Shown here: one piece after another, positions 31,810 to 62,400 of the stretch
Layout of the letters: the number at the start of each line of letters is the position of its first letter
Numbering within the stretch: position 1 is the stretch's first letter
Virus record (IMG/VR): IMGVR_UViG_3300045988_081377
Span: 403 to 64,402 of that record
Length of the DNA: 64,000 nt
Direction: 5' to 3' (one strand)
Source: a virus
Program-made: the position numbers and the translations under genes
The notes under the pieces: generated by a model
Databases searched by the model: none
What the model was told of the DNA's origin: nothing
What the model saw: only the letters and a program-made list of their open reading frames with translations

Positions 31810-32232
31810 TTAGCTCCAATACGTACCTACCTGTTCCTCAAACCAGTGTTTACCGTGTCCCCAAAACTCAATGTCTTTCATAAGAAATTCATCAGGAATA
31901 CCGTATCCTAACAGATACGCATTTTCTCTGCTGTACCACGGTGTGGCATATTCTTTTATCTCCACAATGGCGCTCCAATCGTCGGTAGTGAAGTCAGGGT
32001 AATACCCGCTATTAACTTCCAGATAACGAGACGGGATAAAAAACTTACAGATATAATGTTTCCCCGTCCCCGCTCCCCAATGCGCGCAATTATTCGCATT
32101 GGTGAAAAAGCAAACTGCTTTTTCCAGTTTGCTGCTGTTATTATACAGGCGCATATCACAGCGCCCATATATTCTTAAACCAGCGGAATAATCCGCCAGT
32201 TCTTTCTCTGACATTTTACGATACACTATCAT
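31810..32232 (-). CDS. Hypothetical early protein (first gene of the - block)
   Basis: 140-aa ORF with RBS 'AAAGGGGG'. Trp/Tyr-rich. No secure motif. Confidence 0.55.
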   Translation of the reverse strand: MIVYRKMSEKELADYSAGLRIYGRCDMRLYNNSSKLEKAVCFFTNANNCAHWGAGTGKHYICKFFIPSRYLEVNSGYYPDFTTDDWSAIVEIKEYATPWYSRENAYLLGYGIPDEFLMKDIEFWGHGKHWFEEQVGTYWS

Positions 32233-32951
32233 TGTGTACCCCCTTTCTGCCTGATTACAGGCAATACAAATACTTCTAATTTTACCGCAAGGTATCTGTA
32301 CTTAGTTATTTTTTTATTCTTTTCCCTCTACTATCTATATACAAACATCTGTTCTACCAAACATACGTACGGGTGGGGCTTGGCTAATGGGTATGGTGTA
32401 TCTCAAAAGGGGGTACGAGGGTATCTGTTATTAAAAATATATAATGTTCCTGTATATGAATTAAATGTTTGTTTAATAGAGATTGTCAACCTTATAAATC
32501 AGAAAGTATTCAATACGTAAAAGCATACACACTAATCATAAAAGGATATACTCTTACATTGGTAATGGTAGTATTGGTATTAATGGTATAGGATAAGTTG
32601 AATATTAAGGGTAGGGCTAATAATTTTCTTTTTCCGCCGCGAAGGATGCTTTACCCACCCCGTATTTAATAATATTTTAATACTTTTATAGGAGTTGATT
32701 TAAGGGCTTTGAAGAAGGTCAAAGGTCTTCTGGTATTCAGAAGTTGCTGGACCCCTCTTAAAAACGATTTTAGACCACTTCTTGACGATTTTAAGAGAAG
32801 GGATTGAATGGGGTGGGGCTTGTTTTAGTGGTAGTGGCAACAAATATAATTTGTTGTCCTCAATAAGATGCTTTTAGCATCTTATAGTGGTTGTTATAGA
32901 TAGTATTTTATCTTGGTTATAGAAAAGTTCTATTACAAAATGGGGGTGGTT

Positions 32952-32983
32952 TTCAGTATATTATAGAGGGGTATTAAAATCCT
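32952..32983 (+). promoter_or_regulatory. Copy 1 of the conserved 'TTCAGTATA(T/A)TATAGAGGGGTATTAAAATCCT' box
   Basis: 32 nt, differing at one position from copy 2 at 33084-33115. Confidence 0.6.
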
Positions 32984-32996
32984 TCTGATTATACAC

Positions 32997-33025
32997 TTGA
33001 CATTTTATTATCTTTGGTGTATAAT
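32997..33025 (+). promoter_or_regulatory. Consensus sigma70-type promoter (TTGACA-17-TATAAT) firing into ORF-free sequence
   Basis: TTGACA at 32997-33002, a 17-nt spacer, TATAAT at 33020-33025. Confidence 0.65.
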
Positions 33026-33083
33026 AGTGACAGCTATGAAAAAGTAGCTTCAATACTATGTTTTTGAGAGGTTCTTAACCCTT

Positions 33084-33115
33084 TTCAGTATATAATAGAG
33101 GGGTATTAAAATCCT
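33084..33115 (+). promoter_or_regulatory. Copy 2 of the conserved box
   Basis: 'ttcagtatataatagaggggtattaaaatcct'. Confidence 0.6.
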
Positions 33116-33779
33116 CACCGGTGTTTTCCTTAGTTAGACCGGTCTATCAACTCAAACATAAACGGCGTTATAGAGAGTTGCGTTTATTCTCTATGATGAC
33201 TTCGGAGTTTTACAAGTTGTTCAAGTTCACTTAGTTGTAGGTGGCTCAGTCGTTAAACATCAATAAGCACCTGTCCAACAAAAAGACTGTTCGTTTTCTT
33301 TGTTTCTATTAACAATATATTCCCAGAGATGGGGCGGTCCCTGCTGTAAAGGCGCGCAGGACAGGGCAACCGGTAATTATGACAGTCGTACCCTTGAGAT
33401 ACTAAACGTACTCTTGGCTATACCTTGAAGGTAATTCTACCTTTCTTGAAAAACCAGTGTTTGTGCCGGAAGGGCTGGGTTTAAAAGAAAGTGGAAGCTG
33501 GGTGGAGTGTTTTGGGGGGTTTGGGGGGTCTATTCTTTCCGACCGGCACTTGGAACTGAATACTCTTTATCTCTTTTAGTTACTTAACTGTTTAAAGAAC
33601 ACTTAGTAGTACTCTTTAAATACAGTTGTTGTTAATAGAAAGAATAGAGAGAAAGAAAAGCCATGCAGAATAACCACGGTTATCTACCCTCTTTTCTTTA
33701 AGCTTACACCCTTAACAGTATATTTATCTTTAACTTTATCTTTTTAGAGACAGTTTATTAATACTTTATAGTTATTTAC

Positions 33780-33808
33780 TTGACAGAACATTTTTTATGT
33801 GATATAAT
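33780..33808 (+). promoter_or_regulatory. Perfect-consensus sigma70-type promoter with extended -10 (TTGACA-17-TGaTATAAT)
   Basis: TTGACA at 33780-33785 and TATAAT at 33803-33808, preceded by 'TGa'. AT-rich UP-like sequence lies upstream. Confidence 0.75.
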
Positions 33809-33836
33809 ACAGTCAAGACAGAAAGGAGTGTATATC

Positions 33837-34001
33837 TTGGATATTTATGTACCCGGATTTAATCCCGAAGTAGAAAAAGAAGCTGTTGAAGCTATGACCC
33901 CGTTATTTGCAGAGGCAGATAAGGAAGAAGTTACAGAAGAATTAGAAGAGAATGTGGAAGTAGAAAGCAAACCTAAACGTAAAACAAAGACAAAAGAATA
34001 A
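33837..34001 (+). CDS. Small, very acidic protein with a basic C-terminal tail (54 aa, TTG start)
   Basis: RBS 'AAAGGAG' lies 8 nt before TTG at 33837. Sequence: 'LDIYVPGFNPEVEKEAVEAMTPLFAEADKEEVTEELEENVEVESKPKRKTKTKE'. The 5' part of track ORF 33780.. is the promoter itself. Confidence 0.5.
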   Translation: MDIYVPGFNPEVEKEAVEAMTPLFAEADKEEVTEELEENVEVESKPKRKTKTKE

Positions 34002-34109
34002 TCTTTCCTGATTAATCATACAATAAGCACAGTATAGCTGGGCATCTGCTGTGTTACCCGTCTCGAACCTGCAACAGAGACACCGCCCACCATGGGCTGT
34101 AAGCCTAAA

Positions 34110-34199
34110 GAAAAGCCATGTCCATAGCCATGCGGATACACCCGCGTTCCTGTGATGCTTGCATCAGTTGTTGGGAACAGGTTTCCTGCATGGCTTTTC
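34110..34199 (+). terminator. Large structured element / candidate terminator-attenuator
   Basis: 11-bp closing stem 'gaaaagccatg' (34110-34120) / 'catggcttttc' (34189-34199). Inner hairpin 'tgatgc..gcatca' at 34153-34166. A duplicated 'gccatg' offers alternative pairing. T-rich sequence follows the stem. Confidence 0.35.
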
Positions 34200-34229
34200 T
34201 ATTGCTTATTTTACGTGTTTTAAGGTATG

Positions 34230-34314
34230 TTCAGTATATAATAATAACGTCAAGGACGTTAAGATTATACACTTCAAGAGATTTTCAATCTCTTTCAGTA
34301 TATAATAGGAGAAG
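34230..34314 (+). promoter_or_regulatory. Twin-TATATAAT element X immediately upstream of the late (grx-terL) operon; contains box copies 3 and 4
   Basis: Box 34235-34242. Hairpin 'taacgtc aag gacgtta' at 34245-34261. Core 'agattatacact' at 34262-34273. Hairpin 'aagagatt ttc aatctctt' at 34276-34294. Box 'ttcagtatataataggagaag' at 34294-34314. Confidence 0.55.
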
Positions 34315-34353
34315 TTTTATTCTGATTTGTTGTCTTTATAAAGGGGTGGGGTA

Positions 34354-34581
34354 ATGGCTCTTATGATTTCAGGTCCTGTATGCGGGTATTGCCGCCGTAT
34401 AAGACCTTTATATGATAAGGTTTGTGCTGATTTGGGTATAGAACCTCGTCATATTATGTATTCTGATTATGATGGTGAGGTGGAAAGTGTCCCTTGCCTG
34501 ATTAATAAAGAAGGAAAGAAGATGTACGGGGGTAATCATAACTACGATGAGCTTAAACAGTTCTTTATCGGAGATAAATAA
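34354..34581 (+). CDS. Glutaredoxin/NrdH-like small redox protein
   Basis: 75 aa with 'CGYC' (CxxC) near the N-terminus, plus 'VPCL' and 'GG..' in thioredoxin-fold order. RBS 'AAAGGGGTGGGG'. Confidence 0.55.
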   Translation: MALMISGPVCGYCRRIRPLYDKVCADLGIEPRHIMYSDYDGEVESVPCLINKEGKKMYGGNHNYDELKQFFIGDK

Positions 34582-43448: not shown

Positions 43449-43832
43449 ATGCATGAATTTGATGTACCCGTGTATGATATTGTTATCAATAAAGGGGCTG
43501 ACTTCGTCCTTGACATAGAGCTCGACGACGATAATAACAGCGCTACCCCGTTTGATATGAGCCAGTATAACTTTGCCGCCTGTGTTAAGACCTCTGCAAA
43601 CGAAGATACTCCTATCGTTAGTTTTACCTTTGATAAGAGTAAACTTAACGCTGGGATAATCACAATTAAACTACCGGCGTCTGAAACAAAGAAGCTGCTG
43701 ACTGATGGGGACTACTGGAAAGAGACAACCCAGTATTATTGGGACTTGCTGATGGTGGACGGCAGTAAGAAAGTGACACGTGTATGCCAAGGTACGGTAC
43801 ACGTAAGCCCCGGAATATCTGACATATCATGA
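43449..43832 (+). CDS. Small beta-rich tail-associated protein (paralog of 47026..47364; BppU-N/Ig-like pattern)
   Basis: 'IVINKGADFVLDIELDDDNNSATPFDMSQYNF...IKLPASETKKL...YYWDL' compared with 'IIINQGDDFSMYVTVTDSKNNPVDMTGKEF...CTIPYTETGKL...IYYDI'. Confidence 0.45.
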   Translation: MHEFDVPVYDIVINKGADFVLDIELDDDNNSATPFDMSQYNFAACVKTSANEDTPIVSFTFDKSKLNAGIITIKLPASETKKLLTDGDYWKETTQYYWDLLMVDGSKKVTRVCQGTVHVSPGISDIS

Positions 43833-45604
43833 CAAAGGTAAAATTTAAGAACGGCAACCAGTTTAATACCACTGTCAAGCAGGATAAGCTGTCTGCCGAA
43901 TATCCAAAACAACCTAAGCTAAACATTCCATCAGTTAATAAAAACCCAAAGGTCACTGTCCATAACGCAGGAGAAATTACAGGGCATGTTTCTGTCTCAG
44001 AGATTGAGCAGAAGAAACTCGAAAAGGTTTCTCTTACCAAAGATGGTAGACTGGTGTTTAAGTACGGATGTAATGGCGGTGCAGGTAAGCTAAGCGAAGA
44101 AGATTGGAATAAGCTTGTTGCCGATATAGAAAAGATGATAAAAGAAAACCAGTTAAGCGCAGCAACAAAAGAATACGTAGATAAAAAAATACAGGAAATT
44201 ATAACCGCCGGAGATACCGTACCTGATTATATCAAAAATCAATTACGGCAACTTGGTTTCTTAACATCCGAACTCCAATCAGATTTAGGGAACCTGACAA
44301 ACTCAACCAATGACGCCATACGTGGTTTGCAGAACAAAGATAAAGAAATAGAAGAGAAACAAAAACAAATAAAAGATGAACAGTCAATAACAAACTCCAC
44401 GTTTCATACGCAGATAGAGCAAAACAGCAGGAGTATTACCCAACAGGCTGGATATATTACAGATAACTCTCAGGAGATTACTACGCTCAAACAGACGGCG
44501 GCGGGAATTACTTCGACCGTAAAGGCTAACAAGACATATCAAGATGGTGTTAATAAGGATGTAAACACGGCGGTTAAGAATGTAAGAGATAGGGTTACTA
44601 TTACAGAAGAGGATATCAATGTAATACAGCAGAACGCTAAAGGATTAACTTCCACTGTCGGAAGCAACAAGAGAATACAAGATAAAGTAAACTCTGACCA
44701 AGCGGCTATCAACACCACCGTAAGAAGTGACATTAGCCAAATTAAACAGACGGCTTCTGAAATTAGTACGACCGTTAGAAACAACATAACGGTTACTAAT
44801 TCTAAATTCCAGCAGATGTCTGACCAGATTAGTTTTATGGTAGATAAACGTGGCGTTATTGCTTCTATCAACCTGTCTCCGGAAGGTGTTAAGATAGCGG
44901 GAAAGAGACTGCAAATAGATGGTGACGTTATTATCAGGGCAGAGAACTTAGCCAATAACTCCGTTACTTCTACTAAGATAGTTGGCGGAGCAATTACTAC
45001 CGACAAGATAGCAACCAACGCAGTTACCGCTGACCACATAACAGCTGCCGCTGTTACTGCTAACAAGATAGCGGCGAAAGCTATTACAGCTGATAAGTTA
45101 AATGTTGACAAACTAAGCGCTATTGCATCTGACATTGGCACACTTAATGGCGGAACGATTACAGGAACTAAAATAATTGGCACAAACTTTAAGAACACCA
45201 GTGGCAGTTTTACGGTAGATAACAATGGCGTTATAAAGGGCGCACATATTGTGAGCGGAAGTATTGATGCCGATATCATTAGACGTGCTGGATTTGGTGT
45301 TAGTGCCTCATCCATACGTATTGGAGAAATAAGTATGGTTGCGGACGGTAGACAAGAATATTGGTTTACTATACCGTGTCCTGATGGTTATGTTGTGCGT
45401 CAGTGTTTACCTTTTGTCAGTAACAATTACGGTGGAATAGTCAGCGGAGTATCCTTTAGTGAAAGGGACGAGTGGTCATTTAATGTGATTGTTCGTGATG
45501 GTGGTTACACCTACCATAGCGAATGTACTGGCGCACATTTTGTACCAGCCTTAGAAAAGAACGTAAGGTATGTTTTTAATTATAGGGTGTTGGGTGTAAA
45601 ATAA
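43829..45604 (+). CDS. Tail fibre / needle protein with coiled-coil and 'ITADKI'-type repeats
   Basis: Long heptad-like region, then 'VTSTKIVGGAITTDKIATNAVTADHITAAAVTANKIAAKAITADKLNVDKL', which is typical of phage fibre shafts. Confidence 0.65.
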   Translation: MTKVKFKNGNQFNTTVKQDKLSAEYPKQPKLNIPSVNKNPKVTVHNAGEITGHVSVSEIEQKKLEKVSLTKDGRLVFKYGCNGGAGKLSEEDWNKLVADIEKMIKENQLSAATKEYVDKKIQEIITAGDTVPDYIKNQLRQLGFLTSELQSDLGNLTNSTNDAIRGLQNKDKEIEEKQKQIKDEQSITNSTFHTQIEQNSRSITQQAGYITDNSQEITTLKQTAAGITSTVKANKTYQDGVNKDVNTAVKNVRDRVTITEEDINVIQQNAKGLTSTVGSNKRIQDKVNSDQAAINTTVRSDISQIKQTASEISTTVRNNITVTNSKFQQMSDQISFMVDKRGVIASINLSPEGVKIAGKRLQIDGDVIIRAENLANNSVTSTKIVGGAITTDKIATNAVTADHITAAAVTANKIAAKAITADKLNVDKLSAIASDIGTLNGGTITGTKIIGTNFKNTSGSFTVDNNGVIKGAHIVSGSIDADIIRRAGFGVSASSIRIGEISMVADGRQEYWFTIPCPDGYVVRQCLPFVSNNYGGIVSGVSFSERDEWSFNVIVRDGGYTYHSECTGAHFVPALEKNVRYVFNYRVLGVK

Positions 45605-46543
45605 TTGTTTCAAAATAATATATCAAGAGCACGCAATTACATATCTCCAAATACACTATGTGACGTTTCGTGCGTGTCTCCATGGCTACCTGCGGGATGG
45701 AGTGTGCTTTTAACCAATAGTGGTATGCAAGCTATTTCGTTTCTTATGATGTATTACATGCATCAAGGTTACACTCCCTATTGCCACAATACGGCGTTTA
45801 TAGAAACGAGGCATTTATGCAATGATACTCATGTTATAGATATAATAAGCGACAGTATCCCAGATAAAAGTATTGTGTTTATAGATAATCCTGATTATCT
45901 TGGGTGTTATTTTGACTTAAGTAAATTGTCCATTAAAGTGCATGATGCTAAGTCTATTCTGGTTGTTGATAATACTCGCGTGTCTATATACGGAGATACT
46001 TCATTCAATTATGGCGTTGATTACGTAGTGGAAAGTTATTCTAAGTATGGGGTCGGCAATGGACAAACTCCACTTGGCGGGATATATTTTCGTGCCAATT
46101 CTGTTGAAGAACATCAAAGAATAATTTTATTCGCGGCGGCGTTTGGCGTCTCTGTTATGGAGTCGCAGTGTAAAATTTTATCAGCTGGACTATCCTCGCT
46201 TCGGGCAAGGATGGAGCGGGTAATATGGACGTCGAAACAATTAGACGCAGCTTTGCATGATGCTAATATCCCACATATGTACATCTACGGTTCTGGTATT
46301 TTTAATTTACCATATGATTACCTATATACCATACAAAACGGTAAATACTGGGAAGAGATGAGTGCCTATGGATTTCCTGTATCTACGTATTGTACATGCA
46401 CAGACCACATTCATTTTAACAACCAACATAATGATAGATATTTGAGATTATCGGTTGGGTTAGAAGATACAGACAATTTAGTTGCGGATACTATTGCCGC
46501 ATTAACTAATAAAATTAATTCGCAAAGGTACGACATTAAATGA
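45605..46543 (+). CDS. Cys/Met-metabolism PLP-dependent enzyme homolog (CGS/CBL/MGL family), N-terminally short
   Basis: 'NSGMQAIS', 'LVVDNT', 'GVDYVVESYSKYGVGNGQTPLGG' (Lys in the Schiff-base position), 'LSSLRARMER', 'YLRLSVGLEDTDNLVADTIAAL'. TTG start; the first in-frame ATG is already inside the domain. Confidence 0.65.
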   Translation: MFQNNISRARNYISPNTLCDVSCVSPWLPAGWSVLLTNSGMQAISFLMMYYMHQGYTPYCHNTAFIETRHLCNDTHVIDIISDSIPDKSIVFIDNPDYLGCYFDLSKLSIKVHDAKSILVVDNTRVSIYGDTSFNYGVDYVVESYSKYGVGNGQTPLGGIYFRANSVEEHQRIILFAAAFGVSVMESQCKILSAGLSSLRARMERVIWTSKQLDAALHDANIPHMYIYGSGIFNLPYDYLYTIQNGKYWEEMSAYGFPVSTYCTCTDHIHFNNQHNDRYLRLSVGLEDTDNLVADTIAALTNKINSQRYDIK

Positions 46544-47022
46544 TTAATCAACTTGTTATTAACGAGGACATTATAAATGTAATATTCTTTACTTCTATCT
46601 TGCTAATTGTAGATATAGTCTTGAAGATTACAATAGAAACGGTAGCCTATTTAAGAACCGTAGGCAAGCGTATCACGGTGTGGAACTGTATCACAACGTT
46701 TTGTTGGTACGGTTGGCAGTATGTACCGATAGGTAATGGAAGATACCATCGCTTCCTTATCAGCAAACACTTCCGCTGGGGATTATTCTCTAAGGTGATA
46801 CTCCAATACCCTTTAATATTTTTTATCGGGTATTGTTGTTTCCTACTTCCTAATATCAAGGTAATGGGGTTTGAGTTCGACAACTTCATGGGTTTCTTAT
46901 TTACCTTAATCCCGCCGATATGTGAACTGACTTCTATCATAGAAAAGTTGAACGAGCTCAATGCGGATGTGGTAAGAAAAGGAGAGGATATTATTAGTTT
47001 CATTAGAAGAATGGGGGGGTGA
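46540..47022 (+). CDS. Multi-TM membrane protein, holin-like (phage_holin_4-type C-terminus)
   Basis: 3-4 hydrophobic segments. 'ICELTSIIEKLNELNADV' resembles the 'E..SI.EN....G' motif of that holin family. Confidence 0.4.
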   Translation: MINQLVINEDIINVIFFTSILLIVDIVLKITIETVAYLRTVGKRITVWNCITTFCWYGWQYVPIGNGRYHRFLISKHFRWGLFSKVILQYPLIFFIGYCCFLLPNIKVMGFEFDNFMGFLFTLIPPICELTSIIEKLNELNADVVRKGEDIISFIRRMGG

Positions 47023-47025
47023 TGT

Positions 47026-47364
47026 ATGCAGATTATTATTAATCAGGGCGATGACTTTAGTATGTACGTTACCGTAACTGACTCTAAGAATAATCCTGTT
47101 GATATGACAGGTAAGGAGTTTATATTCTATGGTAAGTACGAACCGATGCAAGGTAAAGATATCGCTTTTACCGGTAAGGTCGTGGTAAGTGGTAATGAAC
47201 TTCATTGTACCATCCCCTACACGGAAACAGGAAAACTTGAGAACCCTGATAAGTGGGCTAAGCGTGGTAAGATATACTACGATATATATTGCAAGACAAC
47301 CCACCAAAGATTACTTTCAGGACCAGCTTTAATTTCCACTGGCATTTCTTATAGGAGACTTTAA
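47026..47364 (+). CDS. Small beta-rich tail-associated protein (paralog of 43449..43832)
   Basis: See 43449..43832. Like its paralog, it directly precedes a fibre gene. Confidence 0.45.
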   Translation: MQIIINQGDDFSMYVTVTDSKNNPVDMTGKEFIFYGKYEPMQGKDIAFTGKVVVSGNELHCTIPYTETGKLENPDKWAKRGKIYYDIYCKTTHQRLLSGPALISTGISYRRL

Positions 47365-47367
47365 TCA

Positions 47368-48825
47368 ATGGATAGAATACCGGATACAATTAATGTTAAT
47401 GTACGTTTTGATGGAGAGGTAGAACACAAAGTAAACGCTGTTATTAACCGAGATGGTAAGGATGGTGTTGATGGGAAAGACGGAGTTACTCCGCAGCTTT
47501 CTATCGGCACAGTTACTACAATGCCAACGGGAGTACAGGCAACAGCTACCATCACTGGCAGTAAAGAACAGCCTATTTTAAACCTTGGACTTCCGAGGGG
47601 GGAAAAGGGCGAGCAGGGTATTCAAGGTCCTAAAGGGATTAAGGGTGACGCTGGAGCTATTGGACCTCAGGGTGTCAAGGGTGATAAGGGAGATAAACCG
47701 CAGGTATCTTTTGCTCTTGATGCTACCGGTAACTTATCTTCTATCGTAGATGGCATGTCGGCAAGTTTAGGGAACGTTAAAGGACCCAAAGGAGATACTG
47801 GTCCGAAAGGTGCAACGGGAGATAAAGGACCCGTGGGACCACAGGGTGTTCAGGGTAAACAAGGCAACACAGGACCTCAAGGACCACAGGGAGCCGCAGG
47901 GGTCAATGGAATAGACGGTAAAGACGGGCAGGCTGCCACCATCATGGTAGGTACTGTTACCACAGTGGAACCTGACCAGATGGCTACGGTGGCTAACGTT
48001 GGAACATCCAACGCCGCTATTCTTAACTTTACAATTCCTAAAGGTATCAAGGGAGATAAAGGGGAAACAGGTCCTCAGGGTGTACAGGGACTAACTGGAC
48101 CTGTTGGACCTAAGGGGGCTACTGGTGACAAGGGTAACACCGGCGAGAAAGGTGATACTGGACCGCAGGGGGTTATGGGACCTAAAGGTGAAGCAGCTAC
48201 TGTTTCTATCGGCTCAGTAGTTACAGGAGAATATGCTACACAGGCATCGGTAACTAATAGTGGTACAGCCAATGCGGCAGTACTAAATTTTGTTATCCCC
48301 AAAGGTAAGGATGGTATCTTAAAGTTTCAAGACTTGACAGAGGCAGAGAAGGCAACACTTAAAGGTGATAAGGGTGACACCGGTCCTAAAGGAGACAAAG
48401 GCGACCCGTTTAAATACACTGACTTTACGCCGGCACAACTCGCAGGACTTAAAGGACCCAAAGGTGACAGGGGCGAGAAAGGACCTAAAGGTGACGTTGG
48501 TCCGAAAGGCGCTGATGGTGCTAAAGGTGAGCAGGGTAATGTTGGACCTATGGGTCCTCAGGGCGCTACCGGTCCCCAAGGACCGATAGGACCTAAGGGT
48601 GCCACGGGAGAAAAGGGTGTAAAAGGTGACACTGGACCTCAAGGTCCTAAAGGAGCTACCGGAGAGAGAGGACCCCAAGGACCGATAGGACCTAAGGGTG
48701 ATGCCGGTACTACCTCGTGGAATGGCATCACTGACAAGCCCGAACTCTTAACTAAAGCTCAAACAATAGCAAAAATTCAGGAAGCGTTTAACGCTCTTGT
48801 TAATGGTAACGAGGTGGCATGGTAA
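47368..48825 (+). CDS. Collagen-like (Gly-X-Y) tail fibre with three interspersed beta modules
   Basis: Long G-X-Y runs ('[40 protein letters not shown]'). Three copies of '..(I/V)G(T/S)V(T/V)T....A.V.N.GT.NAA.LNF.IPKG'. Confidence 0.8.
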
Positions 48826-49958
48826 TGGAAAACGTTTTAATTGATAGGTATGCTATGCAGGATATTGGTAATGCCATCCGCACAAAAAAACAGAACACCA
48901 CTAAGTTAAAGCCGGCGGAAATGGCTCCCGCTATATTGTCCATTAGTGGAGAAAAATCCTCTAAAGTAACGGTCAATAAAGCTGACCACATTAACACACA
49001 GATAAATGTCTATTGGGGGCAGGAAAGTTTAGTGGCAAATTCAGGGCAGTCCTTTGAGCAGGTTATTAAACCGAATAACATAGACGTGCAGGTATTACTG
49101 AAACCGGATAAAGGGTGGAAAGCTAACGGGTACACTTTATCTAAACCATCTTATGTTTTAGGTGATGATATTGTGGTTACAGTCAGTCAGGCGTTAAAAC
49201 TTGAGGACAAGAAAATTCGATTTGATGTACATAAAGCATCTCGTATTAGCGGTGGTTATGCAATGACACCAAATAACAACTTACCAGAATATACCTACAT
49301 ACCAGAATTAAATGGTAATGGTAATATTATAAAAGCCATGCGAAACCTATCATCTAAGTATGCGGTAGTTATACAAAACACACTTGTTATGTTTATAGCC
49401 CTATTCAATGATGAAGAGTATAGAGGTATTGACATGAGCAAACCGTTGAAAGAATTTAGTTTACTTAGCGTAGACATAGATAACACCGGTCAGGTTATAA
49501 ACGTCGGAAATGTATTAATTGACATTGGAGAAGGGGAGAACCGATACCATTGTCTGGCGTGGCAAAAAGTAGTGTCAAGTGCGACGTTGGATACTTTGTT
49601 TATTGCGATAAGTAACTTTACGGGGTATGTAACACTGACGTCTAACACAAAAAAAATTAATGAATATTTCCCGTTCTTTAAGCTTTATCTGGAGAATGTA
49701 CTTGAACTTTATAACTCCAACGTCCCATGGGAAGAAATCAGAACACTTGGAGAAACCATCGGAGATTTTACGGTACAGACAGATGAGATATACAATTACG
49801 TAATGATACTCAGTGATGGTAGTAAAACGGTACAAGAAAGAGCAAATGCTTTTTATTGTGTGTGTTATCACTATAACCATATAGGCTATCTTGAAATACC
49901 CAATAAACCTATGGATGATATTGACGATAATGTCAGGGTTACTGTGGAACCACAATAA
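48819..49958 (+). CDS. Hypothetical tail/receptor-binding protein
   Basis: 379-aa ORF overlapping the fibre stop (ATG at 48819 or 48825). No motif recognised. Confidence 0.5.
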
Positions 49959-50347
49959 TGAAAGACATTATTAAACGTTGCTCTCGTTATTTAAATATAG
50001 GGTATTCTGTCAAAGGGTACAAGTGGGTAAATACTCTCATGTGGGCGTACATGATTGTATGGTTGTTCTACATGTGTGGTTGGTGTTTTAACTTTTACGT
50101 TAGGGGGATGGCAGATTTGCCGGCTCTTATATCGCTTGGTAGTTTAATGGTATCCCCCGCAGCTATTGCTGCGTTAGTCACTTTTGTTAAGGTTAAGTCA
50201 GATGCTAATAATAATGGCATACCTGATTTATTAGAGGAGAAAAATGCGACAAATATTAGACGTGAGCGGATGGAATACTCCGCCGGACCTATCAATGAAC
50301 GGAGAGATTACGGGAATGATAATCAAAGCGGGAGAGGGGTACCATAA
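49958..50347 (+). CDS. Holin candidate (2 TM) directly upstream of the endolysin
   Basis: 'TLMWAYMIVWLFYMCGWCFNFYV' and 'LPALISLGSLMVSPAAIAALVTFV'. The charged C-terminus overlaps the endolysin start by ~100 nt. Confidence 0.5.
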   Translation: MKDIIKRCSRYLNIGYSVKGYKWVNTLMWAYMIVWLFYMCGWCFNFYVRGMADLPALISLGSLMVSPAAIAALVTFVKVKSDANNNGIPDLLEEKNATNIRRERMEYSAGPINERRDYGNDNQSGRGVP

Positions 50348-50837
50348 CGACGGTGATTTCCTTGACCACTACGGTAACGCAATTGACCAAGGGTTAGACG
50401 TTGGCGTGTATTGGTTTACCCGTGCTACCACTCCAGAGGAAGCTGCTAACGAAGCAAACATATTGGTTGACAGGTTATCTGACATAGACGACATCCAGCT
50501 TAGTTTGGGGATTTGGTTTGATATGGAAGATATGAACATGCCCGATTGTACTCCGTTTGAAAGAAGTAAAATCATCATGGCGTTCATTAATGTTATCACG
50601 GAGTGGAACCATGATGTAATGGTTGGGGTGTATTCCGGTTACTACTGTCTTCGTGATAGTATAGACATGTCAGCTATCCCTGCTTATGTTAAGTATTGGA
50701 TGGCGTATTATGACGATGTACTTCCTGATATAAGCTTTTTCCCCACAGGTAGGATACTTTACGCTTGGCAGTTTACTGATGGGTATTTAATTAACGGTGA
50801 GGAATATGACTCAAGTTATGTATACGAGGGTGATTAA
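50244..50837 (+). CDS. GH25-family muramidase (endolysin)
   Basis: 'ILDVSGWN' (the D-x-S-x-W motif), 'MIIKAGEG', 'GVYWFTRA', 'GIWFDMED'. RBS 'GAGGAG'. Confidence 0.75.
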   Translation: MRQILDVSGWNTPPDLSMNGEITGMIIKAGEGYHNDGDFLDHYGNAIDQGLDVGVYWFTRATTPEEAANEANILVDRLSDIDDIQLSLGIWFDMEDMNMPDCTPFERSKIIMAFINVITEWNHDVMVGVYSGYYCLRDSIDMSAIPAYVKYWMAYYDDVLPDISFFPTGRILYAWQFTDGYLINGEEYDSSYVYEGD

Positions 50838-50839
50838 AA

Positions 50840-51301
50840 ATGTTTCTTCGTTTATTCACAAGTATCCTGTTGCTTCTTGGTGCGGTCTTTTTCTCTCCCT
50901 CGTACTCCTTTGCTTATGCACCTACTCTTGTTGTACAGACATCGGACTACATGAAGATAAAAGAGAACTTCAATCAATTGAAACAAAACAACGAGAGGTT
51001 GGAAAAGATATCGACAGAGCAAGAGAAGCAACTGAAAGAAGCGAGGATGCAATTAGAAAAAGCGATGAAAGAATTAGAGACGTCCAAAGAGGAGTTGATG
51101 AAAGCAAAGACATCCAACGAGATAGCAGAAGAGTCATTGAAGAGACTGAAAGCATCTTTGAAAAAATCGAGAGGGAGAATGGTTGGAGTAGGGGCGGCTA
51201 ACTATAAAGGAAAAGTTATTCCGGTTGGTTCCCTGCGTTATCATAATGTAGAGGTAATAGCCGGTGATGGCATTATCATAGGATTGTATCACATTGTGTG
51301 A
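50840..51301 (+). CDS. Secreted coiled-coil protein following the endolysin (spanin-like position); overlapped by alternative ORF 50797/50806..51201
   Basis: Signal-like 'MFLRLFTSILLLLGAVFFSPSYSFAYA', then 'LKQNNERLEKISTEQEKQLKEARMQLEKAMKELETSKEELMKAK'. Confidence 0.45.
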   Translation: MFLRLFTSILLLLGAVFFSPSYSFAYAPTLVVQTSDYMKIKENFNQLKQNNERLEKISTEQEKQLKEARMQLEKAMKELETSKEELMKAKTSNEIAEESLKRLKASLKKSRGRMVGVGAANYKGKVIPVGSLRYHNVEVIAGDGIIIGLYHIV

Positions 51302-56434: not shown

Positions 56435-59400
56435 ATGGGTTTCTTAAAGCCGGACAATGGTGCACAATTCGCAGCCTTTTTGAATGGTGCTGACAATTCT
56501 TATAATGAAGCACTTAGGCAGGGATGGGTACCGTCTAAGAGAGACCCCAATCAAGGATACTTAGGTAATGCTTGGGATAGCTTTACCAGTGGGGCAGAGT
56601 CCATGGCTGGGTCTGCCCTTTCTTCTATTGGGGCTATGACAGGCAGCGGATTGCTGTCAACAGGTGGTGCCTACTTACAGCAAAGAGGGGCAGAGTATGC
56701 TGATAGACAGGCTATCCCAGCAGGACTTGATATAGATTATTTCACCAACCCTCACGGTTTGGCAAGTGGTATCGGACAGCTTGCAGGTTCTTCTTCTACT
56801 ACGCTTGTTGGTTTAGGAGCAGGTGCAGTAGCAGGAGCAATGGGAGCGGCACCAGCTGCATTAACGGGTATTGCTATCGGTAGTACCGCACTTGCAGGTG
56901 GTACAGAGTTCCTTTCTAACCTTGGTGAGGTTTATACTAATAAAAAGAGAGACAATGGCGGAGCGGTATATGACGGAAACATAGACGCTAACGCATGGGA
57001 CTCTACTGTCAGTGACCCTGCGAAAGTAGGAGAACTTGCTTTGACGTCAGCAGCTGACGCTGTTGTTGATAGGTTCATGTATAAAGGCGGTTCTGCACTT
57101 AGAGGGTTAATCTCCGGCGGTAAGCAGCTTGCAGGTGCCGTAGCTGTCGATGGCGGCAAGGTTGCTACTGATATTGCCGCCACATCTTACAAAGGACTTA
57201 TAGGGAAGAAACTTCTTGACCGTGGTGTCAATGCTCTTGAAGAAGGTGTTCAGGAAGCTTGGCAGCAGAACATTCAGAATAACATTCAAGATAACAAAGG
57301 ACAGGCGTTCGACTTCTTCGGCAAAGCTATGTCAGGTACTCTTGGTGATGATGAGAAGCAGGCGTTTAATGAAGCAGCTATCCCGTCATTCTTTATGGGT
57401 GTTCCTGCTGGTGCTTATGAAGTTTATACACAGCACGCTTCTCCTTATACGCAGAGCGACATTGTCGCTGGCGCTCAGCCAACTCAAGACGCTCAACCTC
57501 TAAACGTTATTGCTCCTGAACCTGTCGATACACAGATGTTATCTGACAACATGGCAAACATTCCTACTGTGAATGAAGACGTGTATCAGGCTAATCCATA
57601 CGTGGGACTTCCGCAGGTGGATAACACGACAGCTGATATCAACCAGATGCCTGTTACCAGTGAAGAGAACGTTGGTGAATATGTACCGCAGGATACAAGA
57701 GCGTCCGTGGCAGAAGAAGCTCCTGTAACAATACCTATGCAAGAGATAGCTCCGCAGGTTGAACAGACTGTCGAGCAGGCTCCGGAAGTTAATATAGAAC
57801 AGAAAACCAGAAAAGCCCACATGGCAATCAGGGAACTTAACAAAGCTCTTATTGAACTGCAAGGACAGACGGACGATACATCTAACTCCATGAGGGAACA
57901 GATACTTAGTACCGTTGCTGCTCTTGGTGATAAATACCATGTGGATGTTACTCCAATTATAGAAAGGGCTACTTTAAATGTCGGCACTCAAAACAATCAA
58001 ATCGAACGTAACACCCGCCCCGCAGAAGAGAGGAATGAAACAGGGCGGACAGAAAGTAGGGATGAAGGTACAACCAGTACAAGTCCCGAAAGCCAGAATG
58101 TCAACACTCAAAACGAAGAGGTAAAATTACAGAAAAGGCAGGCGGTATTAAATGAATTTAATTCAGTTGTATCTCCTCCTGAAAAAACTGTTAATGAAAT
58201 TGCGCCTCAAAAAATTAATGAAGGACTCCCGTCCGAACGTGCAGTCAAACAGAACGAGGCTAAGCTTTTAGATGAAGGTGTCGCAGGACAGGTAAAAGAG
58301 AACGCTCCTTCCGTAGATAGCGCTACGGTTGCTGATGTTGCTAATGATGATGTGGGATACCACTATGCTAACCGTTACGGTACGGCAAACATCATGACAA
58401 GAGCGGAGACCAACAGGCTCCTTAAGGAAGCAAGAAGCACGGACAGCAAAGTGGCAGACGATGCCATGAACCGTCTGGTTATCAGCATGCTTCGTCCTTC
58501 GTTTAGTTCTGCATTTAAGAACCTTAATGAAAACACATCTATCAAAGATGTTGCTCCTTATGTATATCATGCAGTACGTGCCGGTATACGTAGGTATAAT
58601 CCTGCTTACACTGTAAAGGTTGGCGGTAAGGAGTACAGCGTATCGCTCGACTCTTTAGTGGGGGCTTTTGTCCGTCACGCTCGCCATAGGGTTGAGAACG
58701 ATAGACAGAACACTATCATTAATGAAAAGGGTAAGGTAGAAGAACGGGCACCGTATAAGACTGGTGAAGTATCCGCCAAGGATATCATCAAAGAGAAACA
58801 GAAATACATTAAAGACAATCAGGAAAGTATCAACAGTAACGATGGTATTCCTGATGCTACCAAGAACGCATTGAAGGCTATCTTAGCCGTGGACCCTGAT
58901 GCACTGCCTGACGAACAGCTGGCAAAGATTGTAGCAGCTATTGATGGGCTTGCCGCCTCTTCCGGCATTAAGGAGCTTAGCAGCGACTACGTTAAACAGG
59001 GCGAAGTAAAAGCTGCAAAACCCACAGGTACTGCTGTTCCTAATACCTTGGTTGACGGTGTGTTCAATACAGAGGTTACTCCAAAGTATTTATCTGATGC
59101 CGTCAAGTTGCCGGAAAAAGAACTGGTAGATACCCTCATGACACTTGATAACATGGCGGAAGTATTGCCCGTGTTCGAGTCGCACTATGGTCATATCATT
59201 TCCAAGATGAAACGTATCATGGGACAGGTTTCCCCTAACGTTTCAAAGGAAGTAAACGAAAGATACGCGGCGCAGTTTAAAGAATTGTGGGACTCTCCTA
59301 TCGCAGGTGGAGAAGCGTTCGGCGTGGCAATGAAGAAAGCTGCTAAAGAGTTTAATGACAGTATTAAATCTGTACAAGCAGAGGTTAATAAGGCTAAGAG

Positions 59401-62400
59401 CCACGGTATACTGGGTGCTATTGTAAAGACAGTCGACAACAATATGGTGTCCGGTGTTGCTTCTACTAAAGATTTCATTAAAGAAATTGACAGCAAGTAC
59501 GACCTTAGTACCCTTGATAAGTCTACTGTACGTGTTATCAGCAGGCTCCTGATGGCAAGACAGAGGAATATGTTTAAGGCTAATGCCGACTATTCCAAGA
59601 GAGGGTATAAAGTAAGCAGCCTTGACCAAGTAAGAGAAACTGAACGTGGTACAATGTCAGGAGAACAGCAGGCGGTAAACGTTGTTGGTGATGAGACCAA
59701 GAAGGGTGTTGCCTCACGTGGACGTGCCGCTTTCTATGATGAAGAAAACGCACAGGACTTCCAGTCCTTACGTAACTTAATGAACGTACTCTCTATCGAC
59801 AATAACATTAAGACTATTCTTGATACCCACAAAGAAGCGTTAAGTGGACAGCCCGTAGAAACTTCTCCTATCACTAAGGGGTTGTTCATCCTTGATAGTC
59901 TCCAGCAGATGCGTGAGGCTATGAAGTACGCCAAACAGGATACAGAATTGATTGATGACATTGTCAGAGAAGTGGCTGCGTTCCAGCAGACAAGAGGGTT
60001 TGACCCGTTTGAGGAACGTAAGGAATACGATAGTAAACTTGCATCAGCTGAAACTCGTATACTCAAAAGTCTTAGCGGTAACACCAATCTATTCAGAGGA
60101 GTGAATGACAACGAGCGTTGGCTTTGGGATTCTACCACTAAACCTACACTTTTCAATGAAGTTACGGACGCGGAAAAGAAAGCGTTAGAAAACTTTATCA
60201 CCTCTGATGAACTGTCAAACGACCCTTATTCCAATAGAAAAGGACAGGGGTATAACGTACACACGATAGATAAGACTAACCTGCGTTTGAAAGAACTTGG
60301 GTTTGATAAGGAAGTTGGTTTACTTTCTGATAAACTTTCGTTAGCTTATGATGCCCGTGAAAGTATTCCCGAAAAGGATAAGCTGTGGGGGTACGATGAA
60401 AAAGGACAGCCACGTAGGTTGATGAATAAATATCTGCGTATGGTGAACGCTGCTCTTGATTTGTGCACCGGTCACATTGACCTTGAGAACGATTACTTTG
60501 GTGTACAGAAAGCTAAGTTTAGTAACAGTCATCAGCTTTGCAGGCAGGACTTCATTAACTTTATGGCTGGCTTTAATCGTGAAGTATTGGATATCTTTGC
60601 CGAAGATAAAGCACAGGTAGCGTCCATCGTCCAGCACTATGGTGCGGGACATCCGTCTGTTACCGCCAATGGTAAGCGTGGTCAGAAGAACAAGTCTAAT
60701 GAGATGTTACCTGCTTATAAGGTAACTCCTGTAACAAGCGGTGCACCGTCAGCATTGGATATGCACTTCCAGAACTTCTTCAATAATGCGGAGAAAATCA
60801 GATTAGCTATGGCACTTGTTAAGGGTGACGCAATGCGTGAAGCTATTGTAACACACCCTGAAAGTGTGGTGGATAATATTGTCACCGCACACAAGAACGC
60901 CACTGTTTACATAGGCAACCAGCGTATGGACAGCATGTATGACATCATGGCTTTCCTGAATACCAGACGTCAGATGCCGATGCATATTCAAGTCAGTGGT
61001 GATAACATTACCATAACCGCCGGCAGAAATAAAGAAGAAGCTGCCAAGTACATTGGGAATATTATGCGTATGAGACAGGAAGCTCTAATGCCTCATAGAG
61101 TTTCCAGCAGACTCAACAGCGAAGCTGTACGCAACACCAATAATCACATTAAAGAACTATCAGAGAAATGTGACGAACTTGCCGTTGACAAAACCTTTAA
61201 GAATTATTTGAAGAACAATGGTATGGGATACAGAGCTAATGACAGTGACACTTTAAAGGCGGTTAAGTATAAGGCTTATAGGATAGGTCTTATCATGGAC
61301 AACAAAAAGAACAACAACGCCAGCGACATATACAATTCGTTCACGCATGATGTTCTTGATTGGTTTAATGAAAGGTTTATGGGCAACAATGAGCAATATA
61401 ACTTCACGATGGAACAAGTACGTCCAGCAGCAGATAGCGCAGGACGGGGACATGATGAGCGGAAGATTAAAGTCGAAGCTCCAAGCGGTAACTCCGTATC
61501 TGGACAGAAGTCCGAACAGAACAGGCGTCCCACCGCAGCTAACAGACGAAGGATTAAAGAAGATGTTCAGGGTCTGCTATCGCTTCAAGAGTCCAAGAGA
61601 CGGGCAGGAGTATCAGGAAATGGCGGACAGTATGCTGATGGCAGCGAAAACAACTTCCCCTACGCAGGACTATCCTCACTATTAAACGATACTGATTTCG
61701 TAGTACCTAAAGGTACGGAGCCTGTATCTTATGTATCTGATGTATTGTCTGATGTAGCTATTACGAAGAATGGTGCAGCAACACTTCCGTTCGGAATAGA
61801 AAATGCACTGGCTAAAATTGTACCCTCTAACCTTGAACCCAACATGGGGCAGAGGAAATTCGACACTGCATTAGTGTACACTCGTGCATTGCTTGATGGT
61901 ATGGTTGACAAAGGTGTTGTCGATAAAAAGGGTATGCTTGAACTGCATAAGTGTCTTGATACCCTGATTGATAATGCACCTGCTCATAGTTCTTTTGTTA
62001 AGAACCTGATGGGGCAGATTGTCAACATGAGTTCTGCAATGACAGAAGTAGAAGCTCCTGCTCCTGTGGCAGAAGCTGCCCCTGATGTAACTACACTGCC
62101 GAAAGAAAAGAAACAGGAAGCGGTATTGTTTAACATTGACAATAAGACGCACACATTAGATGAAGCTATGACGGAAGTACAGAACGCCGTTAAGCAGAAT
62201 AAGCTTAATGACTCTGGTATGTCTGATATTATCAAGCGGGCGGAGAAAGACTTCGGTGGTAAACAATGGGTGTTTGGTGTACAGCAGGCTAAGCAGGTTA
62301 GAGATAAACTTTCTAAGCTGATTAAACTTGAGTATACACTTAATCCCACTTCAAGTATACCATTAAAGAATTTCAAAGCGTTGCAGCATATTATAAAAGA

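Follow-up and report, generated by a model that had tools for sequence, protein, structure and literature searches.

A short, phage-encoded homologue of the Cys/Met PLP enzymes behind a tail-fibre gene, and its relation to a recurrent QueC-like/PLP/SDF/radical-SAM gene set

What would a phage do with a shortened relative of the enzymes of cysteine and methionine metabolism, placed directly behind one of its tail-fibre genes? The question is raised by the gene at positions 45605-46543 of the DNA analysed here, 64,000 nucleotides from a virus (IMG/VR virus record IMGVR_UViG_3300045988_081377, positions 403 to 64,402), which as a whole is called the window. In an earlier note, made from the letters alone, the 312-aa product had been recognised as a truncated homologue of the pyridoxal 5'-phosphate (PLP)-dependent Cys/Met (gamma-) family, and a virion- or lysis-associated lyase, a modification enzyme and a dead structural domain had been put forward as possible roles. 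On balance, and with slightly better than even confidence, we consider the gene to encode an active, late-expressed, soluble cytoplasmic PLP enzyme with a non-classical amino-acid substrate, representing the stand-alone form of an accessory pathway that occupies the fibre slot. Related loci and homologous proteins are referred to below by L and P numbers, respectively.

The gene, its protein and its translation

The gene under study was defined by its open reading frame (ORF) translation, its match to PF01053, AlphaFold2 (AF2) modelling, Foldseek and the ratio of nonsynonymous to synonymous substitution rates (dN/dS):

45605-46543, + strand: PLP enzyme homologue gene, 312 aa, TTG start, TGA stop.

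The assignment to the Cys/Met PLP family was borne out by sequence and by predicted structure. The translation holds all the motifs that had been quoted for it (NSGMQAIS, LVVDNT, GVDYVVESYSKYGVGNGQTPLGG, LSSLRARMER and YLRLSVGLEDTDNLVADTIAAL), including the PLP-binding lysine, which aligns with Lys211 of methionine gamma-lyase (MGL). The fold-type I profile PF01053 (Cys_Met_Meta_PP) was the sole family match, at E = 1.2e-18 and 67.3 bits against a gathering score of 27, and a sequence search of the PDB matched cystathionine gamma-lyase (CGL), MGL and cystathionine beta-lyase (CBL), the best being 1N8P at 2.9e-8. Structure prediction, which had been proposed as a check, gave a confident AF2 model (input alignment, n = 116 sequences; mean predicted local distance difference test score, pLDDT, 85.8; predicted TM-score, pTM, 0.85), with pLDDT below 50 at residues 1-12 only. 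The best Foldseek matches of this model were MGL 1GC0, Toxoplasma gondii and human CGL and Escherichia coli CBL (E ~1e-17; query TM-score, TMq, 0.72-0.80), and the matches, which include 1GC0, 7NL1, 1CL1 and 5EIG, make the model superposable on solved fold-type I members, at a TM-score of about 0.76. The similarity to the family is far above chance and the homology claim stands. No anchor domain, signal peptide, fibre-like domain or extra domain was found by Pfam or in the AF2 model, the protein consisting of the PLP fold only.

The truncation described in the earlier note needs correcting in its extent. The protein is indeed shortened, at about 312 aa, but the loss at the N-terminus amounts to about 47 residues and not to 80-100, since MGL Tyr59 aligns with Tyr12; the remainder of the shortfall of about 85 residues relative to canonical enzymes consists of internal deletions, mainly in the C-terminal domain. 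In gamma-family enzymes an N-terminal arm of about 45-60 residues contributes to tetramer assembly, and it is this arm that is missing: the window protein begins 11 residues before the Tyr59 equivalent, and its homologues begin at the same place.

Membership of the family does not extend to any of its functionally defined groups. Among the NCBIfam equivalogs the best score was obtained with PRK07582 (cystathionine gamma-lyase), at 54.5 bits against a cut-off of 440, and the others, namely cystathionine gamma-synthase (CGS) MetB, CBL MetC, MGL and the O-acetyl- and O-succinylhomoserine sulfhydrylases, reached at most 45 bits against cut-offs of 477-730. Judged by these scores, the protein is no orthologue of any characterised enzyme. 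Public records name the window orthologues 'cystathionine gamma-synthase' (DAX18464.1) or 'cystathionine beta-lyase/gamma-synthase'; by the same measure these names represent a family-level transfer and not an orthology call. Models of known defence systems in PADLOC-DB 2.0 gave no match for the window protein, P0006 or P0082, and a known anti-phage defence system was ruled out on that ground.

Residues of the active site were mapped by alignment to the numbering of Pseudomonas putida MGL, an asterisk marking those contributed by the neighbouring subunit:

46043-46045, + strand: Lys147 codon AAG, predicted Schiff-base (internal aldimine) lysine in the motif E-S-Y-S-K-Y; equivalent of MGL Lys211; kept, and invariant in 116 short and canonical sequences.
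45968-45970, + strand: Asp122 codon GAT, predicted partner of the PLP pyridine nitrogen in the motif VVDNT; equivalent of MGL Asp186; kept, invariant column.
46445-46447, + strand: Arg281 codon AGA, predicted binder of the substrate alpha-carboxylate in the motif RLSVGLED; equivalent of MGL Arg375; kept, invariant column.
45797-45811, + strand: Phe65-Ile-Glu67-Thr-Arg69 codons, clade motif (Y/F)-x-E-T-R in place of the canonical Y-G-(G/C)-T.
45638-45646, + strand: Tyr12-Ile-Ser14 codons, counterpart of the trans-subunit Y-x-R (MGL Tyr59*/Arg61*); Tyr kept, Arg replaced by Ser.

Further residues are kept as well: Ser144 (MGL Ser208) and Ser146 (MGL Thr210, Ser for Thr), both in columns invariant among the 116 aligned sequences, and the loop Ser39-Gly40-Met41 (MGL Ser88-Gly89-Met90). 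By this alignment the constellation of a cofactor site is present in the window protein, and the cofactor residues (Schiff-base Lys, Asp, both phosphate Ser, SGM loop and carboxylate Arg) are conserved across the solitary members of the clade described below at 30-42% identity. The replacements fall into two groups. Glu67 for MGL Cys116, Arg69 for Phe118 and Glu143 for His207 are clade-specific, the Glu and Arg of the (Y/F)-x-E-T-R motif being invariant or nearly so in the short family. Phe65 for MGL Tyr114 is specific to the window lineage, the equivalent being Tyr in P0125, P0126 and P0127, and MGL Arg61* is Ser14 in the window and Ala in P0125; P0126 and P0127 retain both the Tyr114 and the Arg61 equivalents.

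Set against the canonical gamma-family enzymes (MGL 1GC0, CGL 1N8P/2NMP, CBL 1CL1, CGS 1CS1), the window protein is therefore alike in fold, in the SGM loop, in the Asp of VVDNT, in the Lys of S-x-S/T-K, in the Arg of RLSVGLE and in the trans-subunit Tyr. It differs from them in sharing 18-21% identity in structural alignments, in its N-terminal and C-terminal deletions, in carrying Glu67, Arg69 and Glu143 for Gly/Cys, Phe and His together with the Tyr114 and Arg61 replacements, in scoring at about one-eighth of any NCBIfam equivalog cut-off, and in being encoded only on mobile elements.

Whether the ORF is a gene in its own right depends on its junction with the neighbouring genes:

43829-45604, + strand: tail-fibre gene, 591 aa, directly upstream and in the same frame; matches to PHROG tail/tail-fibre families, weak match to Pfam Gp58-like.
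45592-45607, + strand: translation initiation region, with the Shine-Dalgarno (SD)-like element GGGTG at 45592-45596, an 8-nt spacer and TTG at 45605-45607.
46540-47022, + strand: membrane protein, 160 aa, about three hydrophobic segments; phrog_23091 at E = 1.1e-32, function unknown.

A TTG start directly after the fibre stop, as had been proposed, is what the sequence at 45602-45607 holds: the fibre and PLP ORFs share one frame, and the fibre stop TAA at 45602-45604, which lies within the 8-nt spacer, is followed at once by the TTG at 45605. This start appears usable, having an SD-like element 8 nt upstream (GGGTG in the window, AGGTG in relatives) and aligned homologue N-termini, those of the closest homologues by identity (P0125, 42%; P0126, 36%; P0127, 30%) falling at window residues 7-8. 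The identical 312-aa product was called by gene finders in several assemblies. GTG24, called as the start in P0002, is the only alternative and is less likely, given that it has no SD, that both substitutions found before it, at codons 20 and 22, fall on third positions and are silent, and that the homologue N-termini lie at residues 7-8. At the other end, the start of the membrane-protein gene overlaps the PLP stop (ATGA, 46540).

Sharing a frame with the fibre, with TAA alone between them and a weak TTG as start, the sequence could also be a readthrough extension of the fibre, or an untranslated remnant, and no independent gene. This was rejected because relatives carry their own ATG, in L018 within an ATGA overlap with the fibre stop and in a different frame, and in L019 after a 21-nt spacer containing GGAGGTG, so that readthrough is not conserved; the SD-like sequence at the right spacing, the calling of the 312-aa form in several assemblies and the evidence of selection likewise stand against it, and we regard it as a very slight possibility. 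Among the orthologues L001-L003 and L007, which belong to nearly the same phage throughout, dN/dS of the PLP gene was 0.12 at a dS of 0.49 (0.035 for the fibre), and the gene is under purifying selection. Taken together, the start region and the relatives indicate a real, separately translated gene with its own TTG start. Neither an own promoter nor a terminator, the mark of a 'moron', rose above shuffled background near the PLP gene, which is therefore regarded as part of the late structural operon.

The junctions themselves are unusually conserved. A stretch of 71 nt (45593-45663) is identical in L001, L003 and L007, and 67 nt of it (45597-45663) in L002, at the whole-gene dS of 0.49; no RNA structure was detected at this start junction (z = 0.29), and the combination of identity and absent RNA structure fits an initiation region. 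Across the fibre-PLP-membrane region, the longest perfectly conserved stretches are the two junctions, 45593-45663 and 46531-46604 (71 and 74 nt in most comparisons), the second of which also gave no RNA structure (z = 0.12). The PLP gene is the most divergent part, with 12.9% mismatches vs 9% in the fibre and 6% in the membrane gene. The flanking junctions may be translation-coupling regions or the recombination linkers of a swappable module.

A short mobile-element clade and its gene neighbourhoods

A profile search over 5.8 billion proteins separated the relatives of the window protein sharply from the rest of the family. About 105 clusters of short proteins (313-372 aa) scored at least 187 bits, after which scores dropped to 137 bits or less, with canonical enzymes of about 400 aa; a family profile scored 247 bits on the window orthologue L030 and 105-142 bits on canonical enzymes. 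In the alignment, the short proteins share a signature consisting of the absent N-terminal arm, Y-x-E-T-R for Y-G-(G/C)-T, E-S-x-(S/T)-K for H-S-x-T-K and a shortened C-terminal domain. The window protein shares it, with a start about 10-15 residues before Y-x-R, (Y/F)-x-E-T-R, E-S-x-(S/T)-K and monophyly with the others. Neighbour-joining bootstrap support was 100/100 for the short family against the canonical enzymes, 100/100 for a clade linked to QueC-like genes and 100/100 for the group of the window protein, P0125 and P0126, which lies outside the QueC-linked clade. The short clade is monophyletic and confined to phages and other mobile elements, and on these alignments it constitutes a previously undescribed branch of the Cys/Met (gamma-) family.

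Distribution and fibre synteny, suggested in the earlier note as a check, proved informative when the context of the PLP gene was examined at about 60 loci, the contigs of P0128 and P0129 being too short to be of use. At about 50 loci the short PLP gene adjoins a QueC-like PP-loop ATPase gene, usually together with an SDF transporter and a radical-SAM (rSAM)/SPASM enzyme. In the commonest arrangement, type A (about 45 loci), the overlapping genes run [rSAM/SPASM] - QueC-like - PLP - SDF transporter - [rSAM/SPASM] and are flanked, in sipho-, myo- and podophages, by the tail/fibre genes on one side and the holin/endolysin genes on the other; the hosts named are Megasphaera elsdenii, M. massiliensis and Lachnospiraceae, human gut metagenomes being the source of many loci (loci include L004, L005, L006, L010, L012-L017, L022, L023, L029 and L024:4024-14269). 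Type B, with PLP and QueC-like genes only, occurs in a conjugative element with a type IV secretion system (L008) and in other mobile elements (L009, L062, L065). In type C the PLP gene stands alone, as in the window lineage (L018, L019) and in a Dialister/Allisonella histaminiformans prophage (L020/L021), where it has GpJ-side proteins on one side and Gp10_C fibres on the other. In each of the four solitary members whose context could be used (window, L018, L019, L020/L021) the PLP gene directly follows a fibre or receptor-binding-protein-type gene, the fibres preceding it in L018 and L019 being homologous to that of the window.

The partners have recognisable affinities. The QueC-like protein has an SGGxDS PP-loop and the zinc motif C-x8-C-x2-C-x2-C, with a PF06508 match in five of six examples; the rSAM enzyme is closest to PapB-type ranthipeptide maturases, QhpD-type maturases and anaerobic sulfatase-type maturases, and the transporter to DctA, GltP and SstT. 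Run on the cassette proteins, PADLOC recovered no known defence system beyond weak QueC matches. Taken together, the importer, PLP enzyme, ATP-dependent carboxylate-activating ligase and rSAM maturase of the protein or peptide type read as a set for biosynthesis or covalent modification and not for catabolism. QueC-family proteins have been repurposed for conjugation and defence, as in Cap9 of type IV CBASS and in QatC (PMC13329287; bioRxiv 10.1101/2025.04.06.647259), and the usual partner of the PLP clade is likewise a QueC-like PP-loop protein with SGGxDS and a zinc motif, encoded on mobile elements; the survey of the QueC family, however, describes no QueC cluster with a PLP link, and this partner is absent from the window. 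In the literature searched, including that 2026 survey, we found no description of the QueC-like/PLP/SDF/rSAM gene set and no paper that connects a Cys/Met PLP enzyme with either a QueC-like protein or a tail-fibre module.

Sister phages of the window (L024-L028, L033, L034, L041, L042, L056, L061, L015) allow the same slot to be compared with and without the cassette. They are syntenic with it and share 60-70% identity in the capsid, about 50-56% in the scaffold and 44-57% in the four following head-tail genes. The fibre units that define the slot in the window are as follows:

43449-43832, + strand: LtfC-like beta-sandwich adaptor, 127 aa, preceding fibre 1; phrog_1084 at E = 4.5e-22, PF23926 LtfC at 2.1e-5.
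47026-48825, + strand: second fibre unit, with an LtfC-like adaptor at 47026-47364 and a collagen-like fibre at 47368-48825; phrog_1084 and collagen-like tail-fibre PHROGs.

In the sister phages the full type A cassette directly precedes an LtfC-like adaptor with a long fibre, the order in L024 being rSAM, LtfC-like gene and a 1245-aa fibre. The corresponding slot of the window, bounded by fibre 1 and by the second LtfC-like adaptor with its collagen-like fibre, holds only the PLP gene and the gene of the 160-aa membrane protein, and this pair is immediately upstream of the second fibre unit. The PLP proteins of the cassettes, found in Megasphaera, Lachnospiraceae and SU10-like podophages such as L024, share the clade signature and truncation of the window protein; the window differs in having a 160-aa membrane protein in place of the QueC-like, SDF and rSAM genes, and in a PLP protein that branches outside. 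Hidden copies of these partners were ruled out, as tblastn and profile searches of the window turned up no gene of the QueC-like, SDF or rSAM kind, and a six-frame scan for the SGGxDS motif no QueC-like PP-loop ATPase. By these comparisons the window PLP gene is a basal, solitary lineage in the same hot spot and not a recent remnant of the sisters' cassette, because it shares only 24-28% identity with the cassette PLP proteins and is placed outside the QueC-linked clade.

Reaction and role: the readings weighed

The reading that we prefer, an active cytoplasmic enzyme with a non-classical substrate, can be put as a mechanism. The window protein would form the usual active dimer, with Tyr12 of the neighbouring subunit completing the PLP site, the cofactor would be held as an internal aldimine at Lys147, and a free amino acid would be bound as the external aldimine. 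Chemistry at the alpha-, beta- or gamma-carbon would then proceed on a substrate other than the classical trans-sulfuration intermediates, the extra acidic residues Glu67 and Glu143 together with Arg69 pointing to a charged substrate or a different side chain. In MGL, Tyr114 is the PLP-stacking, acid-base residue, and mutagenesis of that enzyme has shown Tyr114 and Arg61 to matter most for gamma-elimination. Their replacement by Phe and Ser suggests altered reaction specificity, not a loss of cofactor binding: gamma-elimination would probably be impaired, with beta-elimination, beta-replacement, racemisation or transamination-type chemistry likelier. The enzyme would act in the cytoplasm late in infection, as the basal, stand-alone version of the fibre-slot accessory pathway, the product of which would in relatives be handed to the ATP-dependent QueC-like ligase. 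Several points weigh against this account. PLP binding and activity are predicted from residues only, and an enzyme with Phe65 and Ser14 in place of Tyr114 and Arg61 could be weak or specialised. Where the QueC-like partner is missing, the pathway logic taken from relatives may not apply; the window lineage, lying outside the QueC-linked clade, may never have been partnered, and its role could be another one, bound up with the fibre gene that always precedes it. A role in the virion or directed at the fibre would likewise be in keeping with a gene that is co-transcribed late with structural genes and coupled tightly to the fibre.

The most conventional alternative is that of an ordinary organosulfur auxiliary metabolic gene (AMG), a phage copy of CGS, CBL, CGL or MGL redirecting host Cys/Met metabolism, for example with release of H2S, methanethiol, NH3 or keto-acids. 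Viral metB, metC, megL and metY have been catalogued by Kieft et al. (bioRxiv 10.1101/2021.01.05.425418) and, like the window gene, are phage-encoded members of the same Pfam family; the orthologues bear the public names of such enzymes, PF01053 is the only family match and the core PLP residues are kept. Those AMGs are near-full-length and are interpreted as serving trans-sulfuration or desulfhydrase reactions, whereas the window clade is short, without the N-terminal arm, and has a remodelled active site (C116 to E, F118 to R and H207 to E, plus Y114 to F and R61 to S in the lineage). Moreover, every NCBIfam equivalog stays at or below 54.5 bits against cut-offs of 440-730, the clade is confined to mobile elements and set apart from cellular enzymes at 100/100 bootstrap, the gene is placed in the late operon's fibre slot rather than with nucleotide or metabolic genes, and the QueC-like ligase, transporter and rSAM enzyme of its relatives look like modification or biosynthesis and not catabolism. 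We consider this explanation unlikely, while giving it some real weight. A factor directed at the fibre or carried in the virion, which would itself or through its product covalently modify or mature the neighbouring receptor-binding proteins, or cleave an amino-acid-type component of the host envelope, appears about as doubtful. For the envelope-directed C-S lyase of the virion or of lysis that the earlier note had put forward, no supporting evidence emerged. The position directly downstream of a fibre gene is classical for fibre assembly and accessory proteins, and it is one that all four solitary members with usable context occupy; in sister podophages and in myo- and siphophages the cassette lies inside or ends the fibre module. 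The phage moreover looks lytic, with free elements of 64-67 kb and no integrase among the ORFs scanned, which makes a lysogen-fitness 'moron' less sensible, and since gamma-family eliminations proceed without a co-substrate, a PLP lyase working outside the cell is chemically possible. Yet the protein has neither a signal peptide nor a domain for virion anchoring or of the fibre type; the fibres of L018 and L019 are homologous, so that shared ancestry may account for part of the synteny; the clade also occurs in conjugative elements that lack fibres (L008, L009); and the transporter of the cassette favours a cytoplasmic pathway. Fibre modules are, in addition, known as recombination hot spots where cargo accumulates. 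Fibre accessory genes of the Tfa/gp38 type resemble the window gene in position only, in that they immediately follow the fibre and are translationally coupled to it; there is no relation in sequence or fold, the window protein having a complete PLP-enzyme fold with intact cofactor residues.

A third possibility, already raised in the earlier note, is that of a catalytically dead, exapted PLP fold serving as chaperone or scaffold, for which the Tyr114 and Arg61 replacements, the lost N-terminal arm and a gene position like that of fibre chaperones can be cited. It is disfavoured because the full cofactor set, including Lys147, Asp122, Ser144, Ser146 and Arg281 together with the SGM loop, is kept at 30-42% identity and dN/dS is 0.12; pseudoenzymes usually lose the Schiff-base lysine. 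We rate it as very improbable. More speculative in another way is the idea, which we hold with low confidence, that the short PLP clade, alone or with its QueC-like, SDF and rSAM partners, serves a new phage and mobile-element pathway functionally tied to receptor-binding proteins, in which an amino-acid-derived group would be made and covalently attached to fibres or adhesins, or the cognate receptor or envelope of the infected cell would be remodelled; the window would then hold the minimal, fibre-dedicated form. In a variant suggested by analogy with the Gat domain of Gat-QueC fusions, the PLP lyase may be the ammonia- or nucleophile-generating subunit for the QueC-like amidoligase.

The surrounding genome and significance for gut phages

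The location of the gene between fibre and lysis genes, and not among the metabolic genes, was as the earlier note had described it and was confirmed by PHROG and Pfam assignments. The window holds a head module with terminase, SU10-type portal and capsid and scaffold, and replication genes encoding a Pol III alpha-type polymerase, a primase-helicase, Rad52, ribonucleotide reductase (RNR) and an SNF2 helicase. Contigs orthologous to the window were met repeatedly at lengths of 64-67 kb, and the window is nearly the whole of a genome of about 65 kb. Among the isolate phages searched there was no relative of the PLP gene or of the 12-kb region, and the capsid shares less than 38% identity with any of them. 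The lysis genes lie downstream:

49958-51301, + strand: lysis genes, with a small membrane protein at 49958-50347, a GH25 endolysin at 50244-50837 and a coiled-coil spanin-like protein at 50840-51301.

They were assigned from PF01183 (E = 6.3e-16), endolysin PHROGs and a weak match to the Rz-like phrog_739, and their homologues follow the cassette in L004, L006, L020 and L022. The small membrane protein directly precedes the endolysin.

The holin-like character that had been ascribed to the neighbouring 160-aa membrane protein is weakly supported. The protein has about three hydrophobic segments, and the PF05105-type holins of L020/L021 match it weakly and co-linearly (E = 0.046, 26-27% identity); a Pfam scan gave no match. 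A homology search returned only the protein itself, and tblastn against isolate phages gave nothing. Its gene lies 3.2 kb upstream of the GH25 endolysin, and dN is 0 at a dS of 0.37-0.55 among relatives. A decayed SDF transporter was rejected, the SDF profile scoring -1.3 bits; possibly the protein is a Phage_holin_4_1-type holin.

An amidoligase operon, to which the earlier note had tied its idea of a modification pathway, was located at 21607-27337 (-), with proteins of 793 and 760 aa that carry C-terminal Amidoligase_2 domains, followed by a class-II GATase_4, and is flanked by the SNF2-type helicase at 20319-21644; it may be a peptide-tagging or base-modification system. It lies 20 kb from the PLP gene on the opposite strand, and co-occurrence in one genome is the only observation connecting the two. 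That part of the idea found no backing, whereas a modification pathway as such gains indirect support from the pairing of nearly all relatives with a QueC-like ligase and often an rSAM/SPASM maturase.

Other features of the genome were recorded along the way. The collagen-like (Gly-X-Y) fibre at 47368-48825 measures 485 aa in the window, 458 in L001:11695-13071, 313 in L002:11695-12636 and 291 in L003:11695-12570, and this variation among near-identical phages suggests expansion and contraction of repeats in a receptor-binding fibre. Between the scaffold and capsid genes, L001:3809-4513 holds an additional 234-aa ORF with a faint LAGLIDADG_3 match, a probable homing endonuclease; the window, L002 and L003 lack the insertion, and the capsid gene call in L001 is shortened to 384 aa. 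A giant ORF at 56435-64000 (+), of at least 2522 codons, runs off the end of the window, and about 980 codons more come from a frame open from its first bases, 3-2954 (+); the product called in relatives measures 3503-3598 aa, which makes the window look like an almost complete genome of about 65 kb, circularly permuted, with one giant protein spanning its ends. The size of this protein recalls the N4 virion RNA polymerase, and no domain was identified in it. The RNR large subunit at 15938-18562 (+), 874 aa, has a C-terminal TSCPD domain and, at residues 307-406, a weak Intein_splicing match, a possible mini-intein or remnant. The replicative polymerase at 5247-8135 (+) is of the bacterial Pol III alpha type (PHP, NTPase and finger domains) and not of family A or B, which is unusual among podophages of comparable size. 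The roughly 2.3 kb (32232-34547) that separate the leftward early/middle genes from the rightward terminase gene contain no ORF of 100 aa or more, have the lowest G+C of the window (0.36) and lie near a change of sign in the GC skew; this may be an origin or regulatory region.

The main interest of the window gene is that it exposes an uncharacterised, recurrent QueC-like/PLP/SDF/rSAM gene set in the tail-fibre slot of gut phages. The set recurs across over 100 protein clusters, for most of which human gut metagenomes are the source, with named hosts that include Veillonellaceae and Lachnospiraceae. Automatic pipelines label the window gene a trans-sulfuration AMG, and counting it as one inflates estimates of viral sulfur metabolism in the gut. 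The window phage carries the simplest version, one enzyme without partners, and prophages of cultivable Megasphaera and Dialister/Allisonella give genetic access to the system. With a small molecule as its product, the pathway would be a new case of phage-borne biosynthesis; should it modify receptor-binding proteins or the host surface, it would add a new layer to the biology of phage host range and exclusion.

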